Assembly (NCBI GenBank): GCA_902591565.1 | Contig: CACJBC010000001.1 | Location: 132,758-196,757 of the forward strand | Source of the DNA: an uncultured SAR86 cluster bacterium | GTDB lineage: Bacteria > Pseudomonadota > Gammaproteobacteria > Magnimaribacterales > D2472 | Length of the DNA stretch: 64,000 nucleotides | Direction of reading: 5' to 3' | In this document: positions 56,499 through 64,000 of the stretch, one piece after another | Numbering within the stretch: position 1 is the first letter of the stretch | How the letters are laid out: each line of letters starts with the position of its first letter | The notes under the pieces: model-generated | Seen by the model: the letters and a program-made list of their open reading frames with translations, nothing else | Told to the model about the DNA's origin: nothing | The model's database searches: none | Program-made: the position numbers and the translations under genes

Positions 56499-58325
56499 AT
56501 GTGTGGAATTATAGCAGCTGCTTCAAATAGAAATGTTGGCAAGCTACTAGTCCAAGGGCTCCATAAAATGGAATATCGAGGATATGATTCGGCAGGCATT
56601 GCTCTCCATCAAGACGAAGGCATAACGCACCTTCGAACCCTTGGAAAAGTTCAGCTCCTCGAAGAAAAAATGATTGCTAAAAAACCAAAAAGTAAATTAG
56701 GTATTGCTCATACAAGATGGGCAACACATGGCGAGCCATCAGAAGTTAATGCCCATCCTCATAAGTCTCAAGATTCGGTATATATTGTTCATAATGGCAT
56801 TATTGAAAATTATGTTGAGCTTAGAGAAAGTCTTAAGAAAGATGGCTATGAATTTATATCTCAAACAGATTCTGAACTAATAGCCCATTTGCTTGATTTT
56901 TATATCAATCAAGGTAAATCAATGGTTGATGCAACTTATTCAGCAAAAGAAAAACTTGAGGGCGCATACGCTATAGCAGCTATTGATATAAAAGATAATA
57001 CCAATTTGGTTATAGCAAGAAACAAATCACCTCTATTAATAGGCATTGGAACCGATGAAATGTTTGCAGCATCAGATCCACTTGCTATAGCACAACAAAC
57101 TAATGATTTTATTTTCTTAGAAGATGGTGATGTGGCAGAGATTTCTGCTGATAGCTACAAAATCTTTGATAAATCTAAAAACGAAGTCAAAAGAGAGATT
57201 ACTCATATAGATATATCAGCTCAAGCTAGCTCAAAGGGTGATTTTAGGCACTATATGGAAAAAGAAATATATGAACAACCTGAAGCTGTTTCAAAAACAA
57301 TAGATGGAAGAATAGGTGGTGAGGACGTTTTAGATAATATTTTTGGTCTTGGCTCAGCTGATTTATTTTCAAAGGTAAAACGTATTCAAATAGTTGCATG
57401 TGGAACCAGTCTTCATGCAGGAAGAGTTGCTGCCAACTGGTTTTCATCAATAGCAGAACTTCCATGTCAAATTGATTATGCTAGTGAGTATAGATATAGA
57501 AACCCTCATGTAGACGAAAATTCATTATTTATTACAATTTCTCAATCAGGCGAAACAGCTGATACTCTGGCCGCACTATTTTATGCGAAACAAAAGGATT
57601 ATCTTTCTACGCTAACTATATGCAATGTTCCTACAAGTTCTTTGGCCAGGGAGTCAGATTTTTCACTATTTACCAATGCTGGCCCTGAGATAGGTGTTGC
57701 CTCAACCAAAGCCTTCACGACTCAATTGGCAGCACTAATGTTGCTTGCATTATCACTTGCAAAAAGTAGAGGGCTAAACCCAAAACTTAGAGGTAGAATT
57801 GTTCAAGCATTAAGACTGCTGCCTGAGACTATTGCAGAAGCTTTAAATTCAAAAGAACAAATGGTAGAGATAGCTCCAAATATTGCCAATAAAGACAATG
57901 CTTTATTTTTAGGCAGAGGTATTTTTTATCCTATTGCTAAAGAGGGCGCACTAAAACTCAAAGAGATTTCTTACATCCATGCTGAAGCTTACCCAGCTGG
58001 AGAGCTAAAACATGGCCCGCTTGCATTAATAGATGAAAATATGCCAGTTATAGCATTGGCCCCTGAAAGTGAAATTGCAGAGAAACTAATTTCTAATTTA
58101 GAAGAGGTGAAAGCCAGAGGCGGAACTCTTTATGTGTGCGCAGCTCCTTCAGTAAATATGGATATTAAGTCCGGAAAGTTAATTCACATGCCAGAATGTG
58201 ATTTCTTTATGACACCAATTATTTATAACATTCCCTTACAAATTCTTTCGTATGAAGTTGCTTTGCTTAGAGGAACAGATATAGATCAGCCACGGAATTT
58301 AGCTAAGTCTGTTACTGTTGAATGA
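56499..58325 (+). CDS. glmS: glutamine-fructose-6-phosphate aminotransferase
   Basis: MCGI, EYRGYDSAG, HTRWATHG, SQSGETADT, PRNLAKSVTVE end. Confidence 0.98.
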   Translation: MCGIIAAASNRNVGKLLVQGLHKMEYRGYDSAGIALHQDEGITHLRTLGKVQLLEEKMIAKKPKSKLGIAHTRWATHGEPSEVNAHPHKSQDSVYIVHNGIIENYVELRESLKKDGYEFISQTDSELIAHLLDFYINQGKSMVDATYSAKEKLEGAYAIAAIDIKDNTNLVIARNKSPLLIGIGTDEMFAASDPLAIAQQTNDFIFLEDGDVAEISADSYKIFDKSKNEVKREITHIDISAQASSKGDFRHYMEKEIYEQPEAVSKTIDGRIGGEDVLDNIFGLGSADLFSKVKRIQIVACGTSLHAGRVAANWFSSIAELPCQIDYASEYRYRNPHVDENSLFITISQSGETADTLAALFYAKQKDYLSTLTICNVPTSSLARESDFSLFTNAGPEIGVASTKAFTTQLAALMLLALSLAKSRGLNPKLRGRIVQALRLLPETIAEALNSKEQMVEIAPNIANKDNALFLGRGIFYPIAKEGALKLKEISYIHAEAYPAGELKHGPLALIDENMPVIALAPESEIAEKLISNLEEVKARGGTLYVCAAPSVNMDIKSGKLIHMPECDFFMTPIIYNIPLQILSYEVALLRGTDIDQPRNLAKSVTVE

Positions 58326-58792
58326 GAATTAGATATTTATTAACGTTTTTGCTTTCTTTAAATATTTTTGCATTTTCAGATGATGTCTCAAACACTCAAA
58401 AAGAATTAATAAGTTTTTTTGATTATGTTGAAAGCAAAGATTTATCGGATAAAGATGCAAAAAAAGAATTAGAACAATATATTTTAGAAAGATGTTCTGC
58501 ATTAAGTTTTGTATGGATAGGCGGTGACAACGAAATATTTGATGTTGGAGATGCTTTTTTTGAAGAGGCAATCGCTCATGCAGGAAAAAGTAAAAGACCA
58601 ATTATTTATAAAAACATACAAAAATATGGCGAAGAATATATTAAACACTGGAATGAGCAGGACTTGCCAAATGAAAACCCTTTTACTGAACTCATGAAAG
58701 ATGACATGGCAGTTTGTTTAAAAATATATGAAGGCAGAAATTATGCAAAGAAGTATGAAGGGCGGAAAGATTCCAAACTTATTGAGGATTAG
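58322..58792 (+). CDS. secreted hypothetical protein (cassette 1)
   Basis: Signal peptide MRIRYLLTFLLSLNIFA, two Cys; ATG overlaps glmS TGA. Confidence 0.75.
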   Translation: MRIRYLLTFLLSLNIFAFSDDVSNTQKELISFFDYVESKDLSDKDAKKELEQYILERCSALSFVWIGGDNEIFDVGDAFFEEAIAHAGKSKRPIIYKNIQKYGEEYIKHWNEQDLPNENPFTELMKDDMAVCLKIYEGRNYAKKYEGRKDSKLIED

Positions 58793-58810
58793 GGGTCAGG
58801 TTAATTCCAC

Positions 58811-58828
58811 TCTGTTACGGTCGAGTAA
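58811..58828 (+). repeat. glmS 3'-end copy 1 (SVTVE-stop)
   Basis: TCT GTT ACG GTC GAG TAA vs glmS TCT GTT ACT GTT GAA TGA; 14/18, all changes silent or stop-preserving. Confidence 0.92.
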
Positions 58829-58858
58829 TTTCGAACAGTGCGTTAAAAAGGAGGAATT

Positions 58859-58978
58859 ATGGAGGTAATGGGAATACTGGGTTTTGTATTTGGACTAATA
58901 GCATTTGTTCGAATAGAAAAACTAACAAAGACTTTGAAAGAAAAAAGAATTCTTGAAGAGAATTACAAAGAAGAATAA
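58859..58978 (+). CDS. 39-aa single-TM microprotein (cassette 2; not in ORF track)
   Basis: AGGAGG at 58849-58854; MEVMGILGFVFGLIAFVRIEKLTKTLKEKRILEENYKEE. Confidence 0.75.
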   Translation: MEVMGILGFVFGLIAFVRIEKLTKTLKEKRILEENYKEE

Positions 58979-58996
58979 CGCACTGTTCCAAAACAC

Positions 58997-59014
58997 TCTG
59001 TTACGGTGGAATAA
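58997..59014 (+). repeat. glmS 3'-end copy 2 (SVTVE-stop)
   Basis: TCT GTT ACG GTG GAA TAA; 15/18 to glmS, all silent; 58994-59017 matches 58808-58831 at 22/24. Confidence 0.92.
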
Positions 59015-59126
59015 TTTGGTAACGAATTAAAAGAGGCAAATGAAACCAGTTTTAAGAAATACAAAATATTGTTTTAAACTTAAAAATAATATACGCTTAT
59101 TTTTTATACATAAATAGGGGGAAATT

Positions 59127-59621
59127 ATGAAAAAATTTTTTGCACTAATATTACTTATACCTTCATCAGCATTTGCAGCTTTTGGTGGTGGAATATCAAT
59201 GGCAAATGTTTCAGGCGAAACCTGCTGTGGAGATCTAAAATGGAATTTATCTACCATTAATGGTGTATATGAGTCTGAAAGAAGTGATGATCTGGCATTT
59301 CAAGTTAAGCTTGGTCTAGGAGTTTCTGACGATTCAGATATAGATGAAGATGGCGACAGATGGGATCTTGATATTAAAAATATGATTCAATTAAAAGGTA
59401 TGTACTTCTTGAATGATGATATTTATGCATCTGTAGTATATACAAGAGCTGATATAGAAGTTTACACAGAATGGGATGATGATACTTCTAGCGATTCTGA
59501 ATCTGATTTTGGATTTTTATTGGGCTATAGAAAAGGTAATTTAGACGCATATTTTGGTCCTGCATTTGATAAAGACGGGACAGAAATATTGGAGTTTGGA
59601 TTTACATATTTTTTTAATTAA
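59127..59621 (+). CDS. small acidic outer-membrane beta-barrel protein (cassette 3)
   Basis: Signal peptide, alternating beta-strand pattern, C-terminal EFGFTYFFN. Confidence 0.7.
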   Translation: MKKFFALILLIPSSAFAAFGGGISMANVSGETCCGDLKWNLSTINGVYESERSDDLAFQVKLGLGVSDDSDIDEDGDRWDLDIKNMIQLKGMYFLNDDIYASVVYTRADIEVYTEWDDDTSSDSESDFGFLLGYRKGNLDAYFGPAFDKDGTEILEFGFTYFFN

Positions 59622-59643
59622 AAATACTGACTATATTGAACAC

Positions 59644-59669
59644 AAAAACCCACTTAGGTGGGTTTTTTT
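59644..59669 (+). terminator. rho-independent terminator
   Basis: AAAAACCCAC-TTAG-GTGGGTTTTTTT. Confidence 0.88.
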
Positions 59670-59693
59670 ATGACTTAATTCGGTTTACCTTAA

Positions 59694-59711
59694 TTAGCTA
59701 CGGTGGAATAG
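59694..59711 (+). repeat. glmS 3'-end copy 3 (LATVE-stop)
   Basis: TTA GCT ACG GTG GAA TAG; shares TACGGTGGAATA with copy 2 and GGTGGAATAGTTTTG with copy 6. Confidence 0.85.
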
Positions 59712-59739
59712 TTTTGTTTTCAGAATTAAAATTTAGATA

Positions 59740-60453
59740 ATGAGTAAAGAAAATATAAACATAGAAGCCATCAAATTAACAAAAGATTCATTCAGCAAAG
59801 ATTTTTTCAATAACACAATAAATCACTTTAAAGACAAAGATCGATACATAAATTTTTTAGATGAAACCGATATAGAAAATAAAATGGATTTTAAAGGCGT
59901 GCAGGTAATAAGAGATAAAAATAGTGGAGCTGTTTATAGAGTTTCAGCTCATGGTAATTTTGCTAAAGATAGCGACAAAATAATAAAACCAAACTTTAAC
60001 TCAGCATGGAGTCCGCATGAAAGATGGACACCATACTTTATGAATTTAGAAGAAAAGTATATTGCATTTGGTTGGCACAATTCTAATAGCGCTCAAATTT
60101 ATAATGAAGTAATTAGAGGAATCGATGTAGAAAAACTTAGCCCTAAAGACAAGGTTTATGAACATTTTTTAAAAATACACAAAAAGAAAAAAAATAGTAA
60201 GCATCCCAACAACAGAGATGATAAAAACAAAAAGAAAAGCCTGAGGGGCTCTATAAATGTTAAAAATTTACCCTCTTTAATTAAAAGTCATCCAAATATT
60301 TATAAAAAAATAATATATTTCGATGATCTTATAATCGATAGATTCTTAATTAACGAGGAAGATCCTTTTTTAACACCGGTTTTTTTTAAAGAGGTTTTAA
60401 TTAATTATTTTAAAACCACAACTGATAAATATTATTGGTATGAATCAGCATGA
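59740..60453 (+). CDS. hypothetical protein (cassette 4)
   Basis: 237-aa ORF, ATGA-coupled to next gene; no family recognised. Confidence 0.7.
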   Translation: MSKENINIEAIKLTKDSFSKDFFNNTINHFKDKDRYINFLDETDIENKMDFKGVQVIRDKNSGAVYRVSAHGNFAKDSDKIIKPNFNSAWSPHERWTPYFMNLEEKYIAFGWHNSNSAQIYNEVIRGIDVEKLSPKDKVYEHFLKIHKKKKNSKHPNNRDDKNKKKSLRGSINVKNLPSLIKSHPNIYKKIIYFDDLIIDRFLINEEDPFLTPVFFKEVLINYFKTTTDKYYWYESA

Positions 60454-60968
60454 ATATATTAAATGAAGCACTAGATGTTTTTGGAGACTCTGTTATCAAA
60501 ATGCATGAATTTATTTTTGATCAAACCGATCATAATGATTTTTGGGCATTTATTAAAAAGCAAAATAAAAAAGGAGTTTATATTTTTTTGGATATGTCAG
60601 CAGAAGAACCTAAGAATATTATTTATATAGGCAAAGCTGGCAAGCTTGAATTTTCTGAGCGAACTTTATCAGACAGATCAGGTAATTATTTTTATAAACC
60701 TAGCGAAAAATATCCAAAAAATCATATAAATGCAGGAAAAATTATAATGCTTAACACTCCAATTAATAAAGATGGAGATGTTGAGTTTAAAAAATTTAAT
60801 GCAAAAATTGATTCAAATGATCTTATTTTAAAAAAGAAAGATTTTAAGATGGTCACAATACAAATAATCAATCATGAAACAATATCACCAGAATTGCTGG
60901 AATCATATTTGCTAAACACATTACTAAAAGAACACAAACATTACCCCAAATTCAATCATAAAATTTAA
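60450..60968 (+). CDS. GIY-YIG nuclease-like protein (cassette 4)
   Basis: KGVYIF...IIYIGKAG, L..R, LESYLL, PKFN near C-terminus. Confidence 0.7.
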   Translation: MNILNEALDVFGDSVIKMHEFIFDQTDHNDFWAFIKKQNKKGVYIFLDMSAEEPKNIIYIGKAGKLEFSERTLSDRSGNYFYKPSEKYPKNHINAGKIIMLNTPINKDGDVEFKKFNAKIDSNDLILKKKDFKMVTIQIINHETISPELLESYLLNTLLKEHKHYPKFNHKI

Positions 60969-60976
60969 TCCCTTAT

Positions 60977-61123
60977 ATGGACCTATTATTAATTTTATTT
61001 ATTTTTATAATCTTGGTGTTTGCTTTTGTACAATTGGCTTGGGGGGTAATAAAATTTACATGGAAAAACGCAATATTGCTCGCAGCTATTCTTATATTAA
61101 TTATATTCCTGTTAGATTTTTAA
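60977..61123 (+). CDS. 48-aa two-TM microprotein (cassette 4; not in ORF track)
   Basis: MDLLLILFIFIILVFAFVQLAWGVIKFTWKNAILLAAILILIIFLLDF; fills the gap between neighbours (8 bp and 1 bp spacing). Confidence 0.6.
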   Translation: MDLLLILFIFIILVFAFVQLAWGVIKFTWKNAILLAAILILIIFLLDF

Positions 61124-61124
61124 T

Positions 61125-61562
61125 ATGAATAATTGGCTTGTAGATTTTAAAAAAAAGACACAATTAGAACACCAAACCCTGTATAGATTTTATACCAGAG
61201 AGTATGAATCACTAGATGACGTTTTGTATGATCTTAATGATTATCTTCAAATAGCCTATGGCGGTAAAAGGTTTGAGGAACAAAAAGAGCTTTTTATTAA
61301 TAGTCTTTGTGAAGAAAACGACTTAAGCAATTTAAAGGATCAGTTCAAAGAATACATCATTGATTTTTTTCTAAACTCTTGCAAAGAAATAAATCTAAAA
61401 AAACTAATAAATAACGAAGACTATTTAAGAGACAATGATTTGCTTAATGAGGAGGGGATGGACTCAAACTTAGACCGACATACTATTGTTACCGCAAATA
61501 TAGTAGATTTTATGATTCTAGCTATTGAAAATTGGTATCATGAAAGGACAAAAGATGAGTAA
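61125..61562 (+). CDS. acidic hypothetical protein (cassette 4)
   Basis: 145-aa ORF; no family recognised. Confidence 0.65.
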   Translation: MNNWLVDFKKKTQLEHQTLYRFYTREYESLDDVLYDLNDYLQIAYGGKRFEEQKELFINSLCEENDLSNLKDQFKEYIIDFFLNSCKEINLKKLINNEDYLRDNDLLNEEGMDSNLDRHTIVTANIVDFMILAIENWYHERTKDE

Positions 61563-61592
61563 TTCAAGCAACCAAACTCTAATACCTTCAGA

Positions 61593-61614
61593 CTCCACAG
61601 AAATAGTGGAGAAC
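61593..61614 (+). repeat. possible degenerate glmS 3'-end copy 4 / hairpin
   Basis: CTCC ACA GAA ATA GTG GAG AAC; TCCAC...GTGGAG layout as at copy 1, at a gene boundary; stop lost. Confidence 0.45.
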
Positions 61615-61633
61615 AAAAGACCTATCTCCTTAA

Positions 61634-62422
61634 TTAGTCAAATGTGAAAATTACCATTTTGTGGTTTTTTGTAGGATAGTTTTCAAGTCCTGAAAGTGGA
61701 ACTTTTACGAATTTTGGGTTAGAGCGGAATAAGAAATTTGGTTTGAAAATATGAGCATAGCCGTAGCCTTGAGCGGCTAAAAAGGACAGTATCGCGTCAG
61801 TTTTGGCCTTGTCTTTTTTGACATGAAATTCTATAACTAACATTGGTTGATGTTTTTGCAGAGTTTCAGTTGCCCCTTGAAGAGCTTTGAGTTCATAACC
61901 TTCTACGTCTATCTTAATGAAGCTAATAGGTCGTTGTGCTTTGTTTTGCAAGTATTCATCTAAAGCTATGACAGAGAACTCAGTATTTGCTTCTGAAGGA
62001 TCTGTTATTTGCGCACCGCCTAAGTTCAAATCATTTACTTTTGCTGGCAACATATCGGTTTGGTCACTAAGCCCAAGATTAACTGCAGTAATATTGTCTG
62101 CAAGTTCAGCGTTAATTGCCAATAACTGGAAGGTTTTATGGTTGGGTTCAAAGCTGATGACTTGTTCAAAAAAGCCGGAAAAAAAGACGGCATGATTACC
62201 TATATTGCCTCCAATATCTAAACAGATTTCCCGAGGGTTAGGTTCGGACATTAAAAAGGACTTTAGAGCTATTAGTTCGTTACGTTCAAAAATACCGTCG
62301 ATCATTATTTTGCGCGATATGATGTCATGAGAAAAGCAGGCTACTTGGGGGTAATCCTTTACGTTTCTCTGAGCAGCTTTTTCTAGGCCAAATTTCAAAA
62401 TTTGACGCATTACTATATTCAT
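61634..62422 (-). CDS. FkbM-family SAM methyltransferase (cassette 5)
   Basis: LDIGGNIGNH, FEPN, FIKIDVEGYE..AL.G, P.L.IE; start moved to MNIV. Confidence 0.9.
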   Translation of the reverse strand: MNIVMRQILKFGLEKAAQRNVKDYPQVACFSHDIISRKIMIDGIFERNELIALKSFLMSEPNPREICLDIGGNIGNHAVFFSGFFEQVISFEPNHKTFQLLAINAELADNITAVNLGLSDQTDMLPAKVNDLNLGGAQITDPSEANTEFSVIALDEYLQNKAQRPISFIKIDVEGYELKALQGATETLQKHQPMLVIEFHVKKDKAKTDAILSFLAAQGYGYAHIFKPNFLFRSNPKFVKVPLSGLENYPTKNHKMVIFTFD

Positions 62423-62486
62423 GTATCTATGATGGGCAATTTTTAAACATAACACAAGCTGAGGCAATCACAATATCTACTTTCTC

Positions 62487-62506
62487 TCCACCCTGAGGTA
62501 GAATAA
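62487..62506 (+). repeat. degenerate glmS 3'-end copy 5 (..EVE-stop)
   Basis: TCCAC CCTGAG GTA GAA TAA vs copy 1 TCCAC TCTGTTACG GTC GAG TAA. Confidence 0.6.
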
Positions 62507-62551
62507 AGAAAGATTTTCAGGTTGGCCGCAAATAATATTAAGATTTGAATC

Positions 62552-62746
62552 ATGATTTGTATTAAGACAGAAATCCCAAAAGAAATCTGTGAAATAGATG
62601 ATGAATTAAAAGCAATCTATCACTCACAGGACACTGTTTGTATATGGGTCTTCAAATCTAGAGAAGATAGAAACAATTTTATGAACAATACGGTTGGTAT
62701 GAATAAAGAAGATAGAGAAAAATATTTTTCAAACAATTATGGATAA
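62552..62746 (+). CDS. 64-aa hypothetical protein (cassette 6)
   Basis: Single ORF filling the interval between two site copies. Confidence 0.7.
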   Translation: MICIKTEIPKEICEIDDELKAIYHSQDTVCIWVFKSREDRNNFMNNTVGMNKEDREKYFSNNYG

Positions 62747-62772
62747 AAAATCAAATCACTGTTCAAACCTAA

Positions 62773-62790
62773 TCAGTCAGGGTGGAATAG
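62773..62790 (+). repeat. glmS 3'-end copy 6 (SVRVE-stop)
   Basis: TCA GTC AGG GTG GAA TAG; preceded by CACTGTTC at the same distance as at copy 2. Confidence 0.82.
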
Positions 62791-62803
62791 TTTTGAGTGA
62801 TAA

Positions 62804-63076
62804 ATGAGACAATTAATACGAACACTCATTAAGATTTTTAAGATTATCTGTGCTCTTTATTTAACGATATTTTCTATTGGATTTTTTTTCCCAACACACA
62901 TTAGAGAAAATGCAATTTCTGTGTACGATTCACTTTCAACTGCAGAAAATGTTCCCATTGATATATGGGCATCCTTAATAATAACTCTCTCCTTAATTCT
63001 ATTGTTTGGTATAAAAACTCTTCAAAGACTATTTTTAGCAAAGGGAAACATCAAAAAGTTTTGGAATGAAATATAA
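62804..63076 (+). CDS. two-TM hypothetical membrane protein (cassette 7)
   Basis: 90 aa, two hydrophobic segments; starts 13 bp after copy 6. Confidence 0.65.
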   Translation: MRQLIRTLIKIFKIICALYLTIFSIGFFFPTHIRENAISVYDSLSTAENVPIDIWASLIITLSLILLFGIKTLQRLFLAKGNIKKFWNEI

Positions 63077-64000
63077 ATACAATAAAACCTTAAAAGTTCG
63101 ATTAATAATATGGGTTGCAGTGGCGCTTCTAATGACTGCTTGTTTTCAAGATGTTAGCAATGAGCGGCTGATGTTTGTAAGTTCTTTGTTCACAGGTGCA
63201 GAGCAAGATAAAAACTTTAATAGAGCTTATAAAATTTTTCCTACCAGTAAACTTCTGGCATCTAACGAGCCCGCGTCCTTTGAAGTAGCGCAATCCATTG
63301 ATCTTCCCTCTAAGTTTACCTTTAGGGGATCGCTCATTGATGTAGAGGAGTTTCTTTCTCGCACTGGAACCAGCGCTTTACTCATTATTAATGATGGAAA
63401 AATTAGTTACGAAAATTATTGGCTAACAGGTGGAAAAGATGTGAAGTGGATCTCGATGTCTGTGGCTAAAAGCTTTATATCTGCTTTAGTTGGTATTGCA
63501 ATCGAACAAGGTTATATCGATAGTGTTAATGACTCTATAACTCAGTATGTCCCACAACTTAAAAATTCTGCCTATGAAGGCATTCAAATCAAAGACGTAT
63601 TACAGATGTCATCTGGCGCAAGATGGAATGAGGATTATAGTGACCCTGATTCTGATGTAATGCGTTCTGCAAAAATCTTCGCTACCGGTGGATCCTTGGA
63701 TGATTTCTCGGCAAGCCTTACAAATGAATTAAAGCCAGGAACATTTAATCGCTATAATTCTACAGATACCCAAGTTCTAGGTATGCTTTTAAGAGAGGCT
63801 ACTGGAATCTCTGTCACTAAATATATGCAAGAAGTTTTGTGGAATCCCATGGGCGCCGAAAGTAATGCTTATTGGCTTATAGACTCAGAAAATATGGAAA
63901 TGGTTTATGCGGGTTTGAATGCAACAGCTCGAGATTATGCAAAGCTGGGTGAATTATTTAGGCTTAAGGGTAAATTCAATGGCAAACAAATTGTTCCAAG
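63066..64000 (+). CDS. serine hydrolase, beta-lactamase/PBP-like family, probable lipoprotein (3'-truncated; not in ORF track)
   Basis: MKYKYNKTLKVRLIIWVAVALLMTAC lipobox-like; SMSVAKS (SxxK), LQMSSG, RYNSTDTQVLG. Confidence 0.88.
   Translation, partial: MKYKYNKTLKVRLIIWVAVALLMTACFQDVSNERLMFVSSLFTGAEQDKNFNRAYKIFPTSKLLASNEPASFEVAQSIDLPSKFTFRGSLIDVEEFLSRTGTSALLIINDGKISYENYWLTGGKDVKWISMSVAKSFISALVGIAIEQGYIDSVNDSITQYVPQLKNSAYEGIQIKDVLQMSSGARWNEDYSDPDSDVMRSAKIFATGGSLDDFSASLTNELKPGTFNRYNSTDTQVLGMLLREATGISVTKYMQEVLWNPMGAESNAYWLIDSENMEMVYAGLNATARDYAKLGELFRLKGKFNGKQIVP

Follow-up and report, generated by a model that had tools for sequence, protein, structure and literature searches.

The glmS gene of an uncultured SAR86 cluster bacterium lies near the right end of a 64,000-nucleotide stretch (hereafter the window; GenBank assembly GCA_902591565.1, contig CACJBC010000001.1, positions 132,758 to 196,757 of the forward strand), and the last 18 bases of this gene recur at intervals between the small genes that follow it, which raises the question of what placed these copies there and what they delimit. 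The answer put forward here is that the copies probably mark stacked, recombinase-less cassettes, which exchange at the central AC of the copy and entered in succession through the action of a large serine recombinase that rarer helper elements provide in trans. This reading is carried by the observed structure of the sites, the point of exchange, the precise gain and loss of units, the identity of units across families, and the recombinases linked to the same sites and arms.

All five 18-mers listed in a preliminary description of this DNA were confirmed. With up to two mismatches allowed, the 18-mer matches the window six times where 1.46 matches were expected, a number equalled in one of 100 shuffled sequences; five of the six matches lie on the forward strand within 4.5 kb past the glmS stop. 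A scoring matrix built on 121 copies from other genomes assigned 17-30 bits to the six sites, while the best other place in the region reached 2.3, and scores of at least 15 were obtained at just 9 of the 2.14 million positions of the window genome (G000, 1.07 Mb, 83% complete), in which no second cluster of glmS-end copies was found. Two weaker copies that had been suspected proved to be something else: the one at 61597 (score -14.7) is not a core and belongs to a recurrent right-end motif, and the one at 62489 (score -13.6) is a half-site whose right half and arm match a recurrent left end, the left half being lost.

The arrangement extends throughout the order. Up to 20 kb behind glmS was retrieved from 40 of 60 relatives (275 bases from G054); G037, G051 and G057 were not included, and the remaining relatives were left out for want of a usable glmS end. 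The genomes compared span 0.9-1.8 Mb with about 33% GC. Arrays are present at 36 of the 41 loci, that of G000 included, which together hold 126 further copies at no more than two mismatches (four distant two-mismatch matches having been dropped) and up to 10 copies in a single array; the minus strand, 740,630 bases in all, gave six matches at up to two mismatches and none at up to one. Of the 57 genomes of the order that are at least 90% complete, 34 contain no fewer than two exact copies, and 16 of these 57 genomes at least three. The corresponding tally for genomes of the class outside the order, which takes in the unpublished G302, G379, G523 and G533, is 23/298 with two or more copies, 2/298 with three and none with more, most of these 298 holding the 18-mer once.

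No locus compared has the gene content and order of another, and the 30-mers following the glmS stop are of 40 distinct kinds in 41 loci, as the proposed variability among relatives had predicted. The units have a median length of 540 bp, and among those of up to 700 bp, 66 of 78 hold exactly one open reading frame (ORF), the main ORF is on the glmS strand in 68 of 78, and it starts at a median of 31 bases after the left site and ends 32 before the right one. The cargo includes nucleases of HNH, MrcB-like, DpnI-like and SRA-HNH type alongside small membrane proteins and numerous genes of unknown function; a full recombinase was found in none of the 152 cluster representatives of array ORFs and in none of 95 from further downstream. 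Singleton ORFs account for 47% of 150 in the site-bounded zone vs 19% of the 426 that lie in the 8 kb behind it. Of 121 inner gene clusters, 34 recur beyond the last site in other loci, and site mismatches, at 0.3-0.4 for ranks 1-2, reach 0.9 from rank 5 on. Together, these trends indicate that the array ages outwards.

The preliminary description overlooked the inverted arms beside the core copies. A dyad axis runs between the A and the C of the Thr codon (core positions 7/8), and the flanking arms form inverted repeats. At least 12 of 16 arm positions are complementary in 62 of the 126 units (45 of 78 among units of up to 700 bp), a level reached by 7.7% of arm pairs taken from different units and by 10% of 90 array junctions. 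The mean complementarity is 9.5 in register vs 3.9-5.2 when the arms are slid by 1-3 bases. The 62 arm-positive units sort into 17 groups by arm sequence, and with one unit taken per group, the value is 7.3 as against 5.0 for deranged pairs, whose highest value in 300 draws was 5.7.

The point of exchange was located by the free positions of the core. In 53 pairs of sites with a common upstream unit, agreement was 0.68 and 0.70 at positions 3 and 6 vs 0.26 and 0.38 at positions 9 and 12; in 43 pairs with a common downstream unit, the values were reversed, namely 0.28 and 0.30 vs 0.56 and 0.74, while unrelated pairs agreed at 0.31-0.33. Positions 3 and 6 thus travel with the upstream unit and positions 9, 12, 15 and 18 with the downstream one. 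Since core positions 1-6 track the upstream unit and 9-18 the downstream one, the exchange must fall within the invariant AC, and serine recombinases, as set out in excerpts of PMC11722253, exchange strands over two bases in just this way, in the middle of a dyad. Moreover, the half of the copy that comes to encode the VE-stop end deviates at 19 of 1008 fixed positions vs 42 of 504 in the never-coding half, and breakpoints fall within the copies, both of which support the earlier proposal that cassettes accrete with a replacement glmS end each. The tyrosine integrase invoked at the same time, on the model of SGI1, is not supported, since position 6 goes with one side and position 9 with the other, exchange does not reach beyond the central dinucleotide, and the enzyme linked to the sites is of the large serine recombinase type.

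The same data bear on the idea that the copies are target-site duplications or scars of Tn7-related elements. Tn7 uses the conserved glmS end as a landmark, which lends the idea some appeal. It is nevertheless scarcely credible here, for neighboring copies differ in a side-specific manner at free positions, none of the 126 units shows a TGT start or an ACA end, and neither TnsD nor the IS110/IS1111 DEDD transposase (PF02371) was detected in any of five genomes, the TnsD control set being likewise without a match over the cutoff.

Rearrangement at the sites is visible in seawater contigs assembled from 8 of 24 public runs. A contig of run X1 joins 58307 to 58997 with eight shared bases, whereby exactly two window units are skipped and unit 3 is fused directly to glmS. 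In X6, the window glmS is followed up to 58315 and then gives way to a helper-type left arm; loose contig ends cluster at 58808-58814 and 58998-59017; and a joint of 58307 to 58811 in X12 is weak, with 21 bases only on one side. Unit 2 occurs with other neighbors in seawater contigs and in G004 and G036. The site near 61634, decayed in G000, is preserved in a contig from seawater in which 61622 is joined to 58814, and in an X2 contig the window remnant near 61600-61634 is of the G200 arm type described below.

In addition, near-identical units are shared by different families. A 511-bp unit with 97.7% identity occupies rank 1 in G043 (family f2) and rank 3 in G047 (f3), while the last 100 bases of glmS in the two agree at 61; a 538-bp unit is 97.8% identical between f4 and f3, and a 283-bp unit 93.7% between f2 and f1. 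Overall, families that share units of 94-98% identity have glmS tails agreeing at 56-68 of 100 bases. As judged from these alignments, the cross-family units argue for independent movement, with which transfer in cis would also be compatible.

Large serine recombinases are associated with the same sites and arms. In G200, which belongs to the family of the window genome, the first unit at glmS is 6047 bp long and harbors a recombinase-domain fragment, an ORF2/G2P-type replication protein (Rep), small ORFs, and a 551-aa recombinase with Resolvase, Recombinase and zinc-ribbon domains, the gene of which ends 25 bases before the right site. Eleven metagenome matches were obtained, and all seven that reach the recombinase C-terminus are followed by the site 6-25 bases on. 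G122 has a cut-off relative, and locus L292 contains a complete 8.5-kb element at glmS. In L294, the recombinase gene leads into the right arm, the core and the left arm, the arms pairing at 13 of 16 positions, and beyond them lie the fragment and the Rep; such a joined, attP-type form is present in the helper contigs L294, L115 and L175, for which a circle or a tandem is alike possible. Two first units open with a start-less PF07508-like fragment, and 23 of 266 genomes of the order hold a recombinase-domain fragment in units devoid of the catalytic part; the fragment starts, in either orientation, within about 110 bases of the site, except for the match in G007. The newest unit of L280 (G238:C1; 5286 bp) also has such a fragment at its right site, reading outward-in, beside two ORFs (819 and 823 aa) which on visual inspection resemble subunits of type I restriction-modification systems.

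In several helpers, the site divides a gene. The 125-aa frame of L294 begins with a GTG overlapping the recombinase stop and spans the site; the model of its protein (pLDDT 76.6) has a three-helix core, and no sequence match to it was found in the PDB. In a second clade (L115, L175 and P0001-P0022), the site lies within the recombinase gene itself: L115, from a viral collection, carries an arm-flanked site inside the gene of a large serine recombinase of 733 aa, after which comes a fragment-like domain, and in 20 more proteins of this type that were aligned, the antisense site motif is mostly kept. When a unit's own ends were joined, the split-gene frame was open in 13 of 13 cases, with a start within 60 bases in 6 of 13 vs 25-39% for foreign ends. 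The helper arms recur in the small units as well, a match of at least 23 of 28 bases being found in 1-3 of the 126 right arms for each of five helpers and the best match reaching 27/28. Taken together, these links lead us to infer from the sequences that the enzymes catalyze the exchange and moved the small units in trans.

Searches for further helpers gave little. Neither the commonest arm nor the G031 fragment nor the G200 recombinase found a match when IMG/VR was scanned; an A1 scan had L115 as its sole match; L115 alone among 65 viral loci with the core reaches 12/16 arm positions; in the collection of named genomes, the G200 enzyme had no relative, and a single arm match there was unrelated; and none of 42 candidates was a longer version of the G031 fragment. 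Serine recombinases of G007, G035, G017 and G114 were set aside, as a tRNA-like sequence and no glmS site stands at their end; the respective loci (L075, L076, L074 and L278) represent a separate family of about 520 aa whose frames run into the tRNA-like sequence. L086 and some 24 similar IMG/VR loci show a non-coding copy of the SVTVE-stop end on low-GC viral contigs, with no arms and no recombinase match within 6 kb; they possibly constitute a further glmS-targeting phage group. In L100 and L122, from the viral collection, an ORF with a resolvase domain comes about 330 bases after a glmS end.

Exchange by the host XerC/XerD, or by another tyrosine recombinase, acting on folded single-stranded circles in the manner of integron attC or CTX-type elements would accommodate arms that vary in sequence (17 groups in 62 units) and stay complementary, as well as the predicted fold of the joined ends of unit 2 (-16 kcal/mol), the rolling-circle Rep of the helper, and the finding that G000 and most relatives have no tyrosine recombinases other than XerC and XerD. 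It is very improbable all the same, because the exchange is limited to the two central bases, with no shared overlap of 6-8 bases, and because no IntI exceeded the TIGR02249 cutoff in five genomes, where the matches overlap XerC/D. Furthermore, distinct serine recombinases carry distinct arms that match small units, by which the variation of the arms is explained without an enzyme that reads structure.

Several observations weigh against cassettes moved in trans by serine recombinases. Clear in-register arms are wanting in 64 of the 126 units; the commonest arm group (33 of the 62 arm-positive units, window unit 2 among them) has no recombinase assigned to it; an intact serine recombinase at glmS was found in one of 266 genomes of the order and none in the window units or in the 83% complete G000; L294 could be a tandem pair instead of a circle; and the circular junctions that the preliminary description had led one to expect were seen for no window unit in the eight runs, whose contigs drop rare forms.

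This last result is also what would be anticipated if the units were decayed remnants, of the kind termed cis-mobilizable elements (CIMEs), of autonomous serine-recombinase elements, travelling in cis with a helper or by homologous recombination. The arrays fit the definition of CIMEs in that both att sites are kept and a full recombinase is lacking from the 152 array representatives; helper arms recur in small units; the fragments without a catalytic part in 23 of 266 genomes, nearly all abutting the site, indicate that deletion derivatives exist; and the same route is known for tandems of integrative and conjugative elements (ICEs) and integrative and mobilizable elements (IMEs), according to excerpts of PMC5704250. 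This explanation is nonetheless unlikely, given that 66 of the 78 units of up to 700 bp contain a single ORF with median margins of 31/32 bases, which points to fitted cassettes rather than random deletions, and that one and the same unit has different neighbors on both sides and comes first at glmS in another family. Under it, the enzyme and the target would be unchanged and only the mode of travel would differ.

Cassette insertion by trans-acting serine recombinases would proceed as follows. In a circularized unit, the two arms about the AC would form attP, and its recombination with the glmS end as attB would give glmS a new VE-stop tail from the left end of the unit, each insertion pushing the older units downstream. 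The small units presumably pass through circular intermediates and may move from cell to cell with the rolling-circle Rep of a helper or in phage particles. Promoter and terminator scans remained at chance (30 vs 35.9 and 7 vs 4.9, respectively), and the cargo is probably promoterless; the nearest cassettes may be expressed by read-through from the atp-glmU-glmS genes. Outer sites decay, and the genes there become fixed. A wider proposal, advanced tentatively and falling somewhat short of an even chance, is that the whole constitutes a convergent serine-recombinase counterpart of the integron, with an order-wide pool of promoterless single genes that passes from family to family by way of a single site in an essential gene, rare helpers that drive it, and a split-gene switch that depends on excision. 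In such a switch, the site would split a recombinase-like DNA-binding gene that is whole only when excised, either as the separate 125-aa protein of L294 or as the C-terminal domain of the recombinase in the L115 type, and might thereby set the direction of recombination.

The features of the window locus are collected in the table. In unit 1, the start of the ORF overlaps the glmS stop and the arms are weakly complementary (5/16), whereas the inverted arms of unit 2, at 58829-58845 and 58976-58993, are complementary at 15/16; those of unit 3 are so at a one-base offset, and its ORF matches an outer-membrane beta-barrel family below the cutoff. The older block, which ends in a right-end remnant at about 61600-61622 and the decayed site near 61634, is probably composed of several units whose inner sites were lost. 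The unit from 62543 is 94% identical to a 248-bp first unit directly at glmS in G047, and the sequence from 63081 on shares 91% identity with the first unit of G026, which is 1251 bp long. The 417-aa serine hydrolase (63066-64319) shares its stop codon with site copy 5.

Features of the glmS locus in the window (coordinates are window positions).
Feature	Coordinates	Strand	Remarks
glmS (target gene)	56499..58325	+	608 aa; closes the atp-glmU-glmS run
First hybrid site, within the glmS end	58308..58325	+	crossover dinucleotide AC at 58314-58315
Unit 1, 503 bp	58316..58818	+	156-aa ORF 58322-58792, no family
Site copy 1	58811..58828	+	AC at 58817-58818; 30.2 bits
Unit 2, 186 bp	58819..59004	+	39-aa ORF 58859-58978 after a ribosome-binding motif
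Site copy 2	58997..59014	+	AC at 59003-59004
Unit 3, 697 bp	59005..59701	+	164-aa ORF 59127-59621
Site copy 3	59694..59711	+	left half altered; AC retained at 59700-59701
Older block	59702..61650	+	ORFs 59740-60453, 60450-60968, 60977-61123 and 61125-61562; no Pfam family
FkbM-family methyltransferase, 277 aa	61634..62467	-	about 39% GC
Half-site remnant	62489..62530	+	right half of the core and recurrent left arm
Unit with 64-aa ORF 62552-62746	62543..62780	+	left core lost
Site copy 4	62773..62790	+	central AC changed to AG
90-aa ORF 62804-63076 and 417-aa beta-lactamase-family serine hydrolase from 63066	62781..64000	+	
Site copy 5	64302-64319		past the window end, contig C1; central AC changed to AT

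Some other loci depart from the usual arrangement. In L052 (G018), a 2.5-kb block with a glycosyltransferase, a Kdo kinase and a sulfotransferase is duplicated with 100% identity at ranks 4-5, either as a true tandem or through an error of assembly. A longer glmS-like stretch precedes the second copy in L042 (G008) and suggests a duplication, not an arm-bounded unit. In L045 (G016), the minus strand carries the start of the atp operon, parAB and mnmG/mnmE some 5.6 kb past glmS, suggestive of an inversion or a misassembly.

The arrays offer a testable route for the exchange of accessory genes, many of them nucleases, membrane proteins and unknowns, across genera and families in streamlined marine bacteria with almost no mobile-element genes, and the lineage would likely gain an integron-like store of swappable genes. 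The long variable region behind glmS is thereby explained as an age-ordered record of insertions. Meanwhile, a family of serine recombinases that hits a near-universal and harmless bacterial site, with natural variants of the arms, comes into view, and with it a possible new means of controlling the direction of recombination.

With regard to known systems, Tn7 shares the glmS end as its landmark; the arrays differ from it in that no Tns proteins or Tn7 ends were found and in that insertion falls within the reading frame and rebuilds it. Like integrons, they consist of short units that share one orientation, hold a single gene each and apparently lack promoters; nucleases and unknown genes abound in the cargo, and the newest unit stands beside a fixed site. 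Unlike integrons, they have no IntI and no attC boxes, the enzyme is non-resident, the crossover lies at the centre of an inverted repeat and the fixed site is coding sequence; GTTRRRY, the core of attC at its crossover, occurs near just 24 of the 126 sites. The tandem accretion at a gene 3' end works like that of IMEs and CIMEs. In the latter, as far as excerpts of PMC5704250 describe them, CIMEs are decayed and serine-recombinase IMEs disrupt dispensable genes, whereas here an essential gene is restored and small units remain intact and near-identical across families.

The closest likeness is to the staphylococcal cassette chromosome (SCC/SCCmec) and the Enterococcus cassette chromosome (ECC) at rlmH, which, in excerpts of PMC13739063 and PMC6222049, likewise combine a large serine recombinase with the 3' end of a conserved gene and with degenerate inverted half-sites about a central dinucleotide, one of them lying partly in the coding frame, and likewise occur as composite tandems and as islands that lack a recombinase. 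The arrays do not belong to this group on account of target and core, which are rlmH and GA together with a TATCATAA motif in the excerpted PMC13739063, and glmS and AC with no TATCATAA here. Further differences are the single recombinase gene of the glmS helpers, the small units (median 540 bp, mostly single genes), the frequency of composites (36 of 41 loci as opposed to 5.9% of 1,562 SCC elements), and a site by which part of the recombinase locus is split. Neither serine recombinases that target glmS nor glmS-end arrays were found described in the literature, of which the coverage was partial, so that absence from print is not established; glmS is absent from the main text and eight supplements of PMC10083194. 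As in other elements of large serine recombinases, the characteristic domains are present in the 6047-bp unit of G200 and in L115, and the exchange takes place at a central dinucleotide. The glmS arrays are a new form of serine-recombinase accretion with integron-like cargo, which is real, order-wide and mechanistically coherent.

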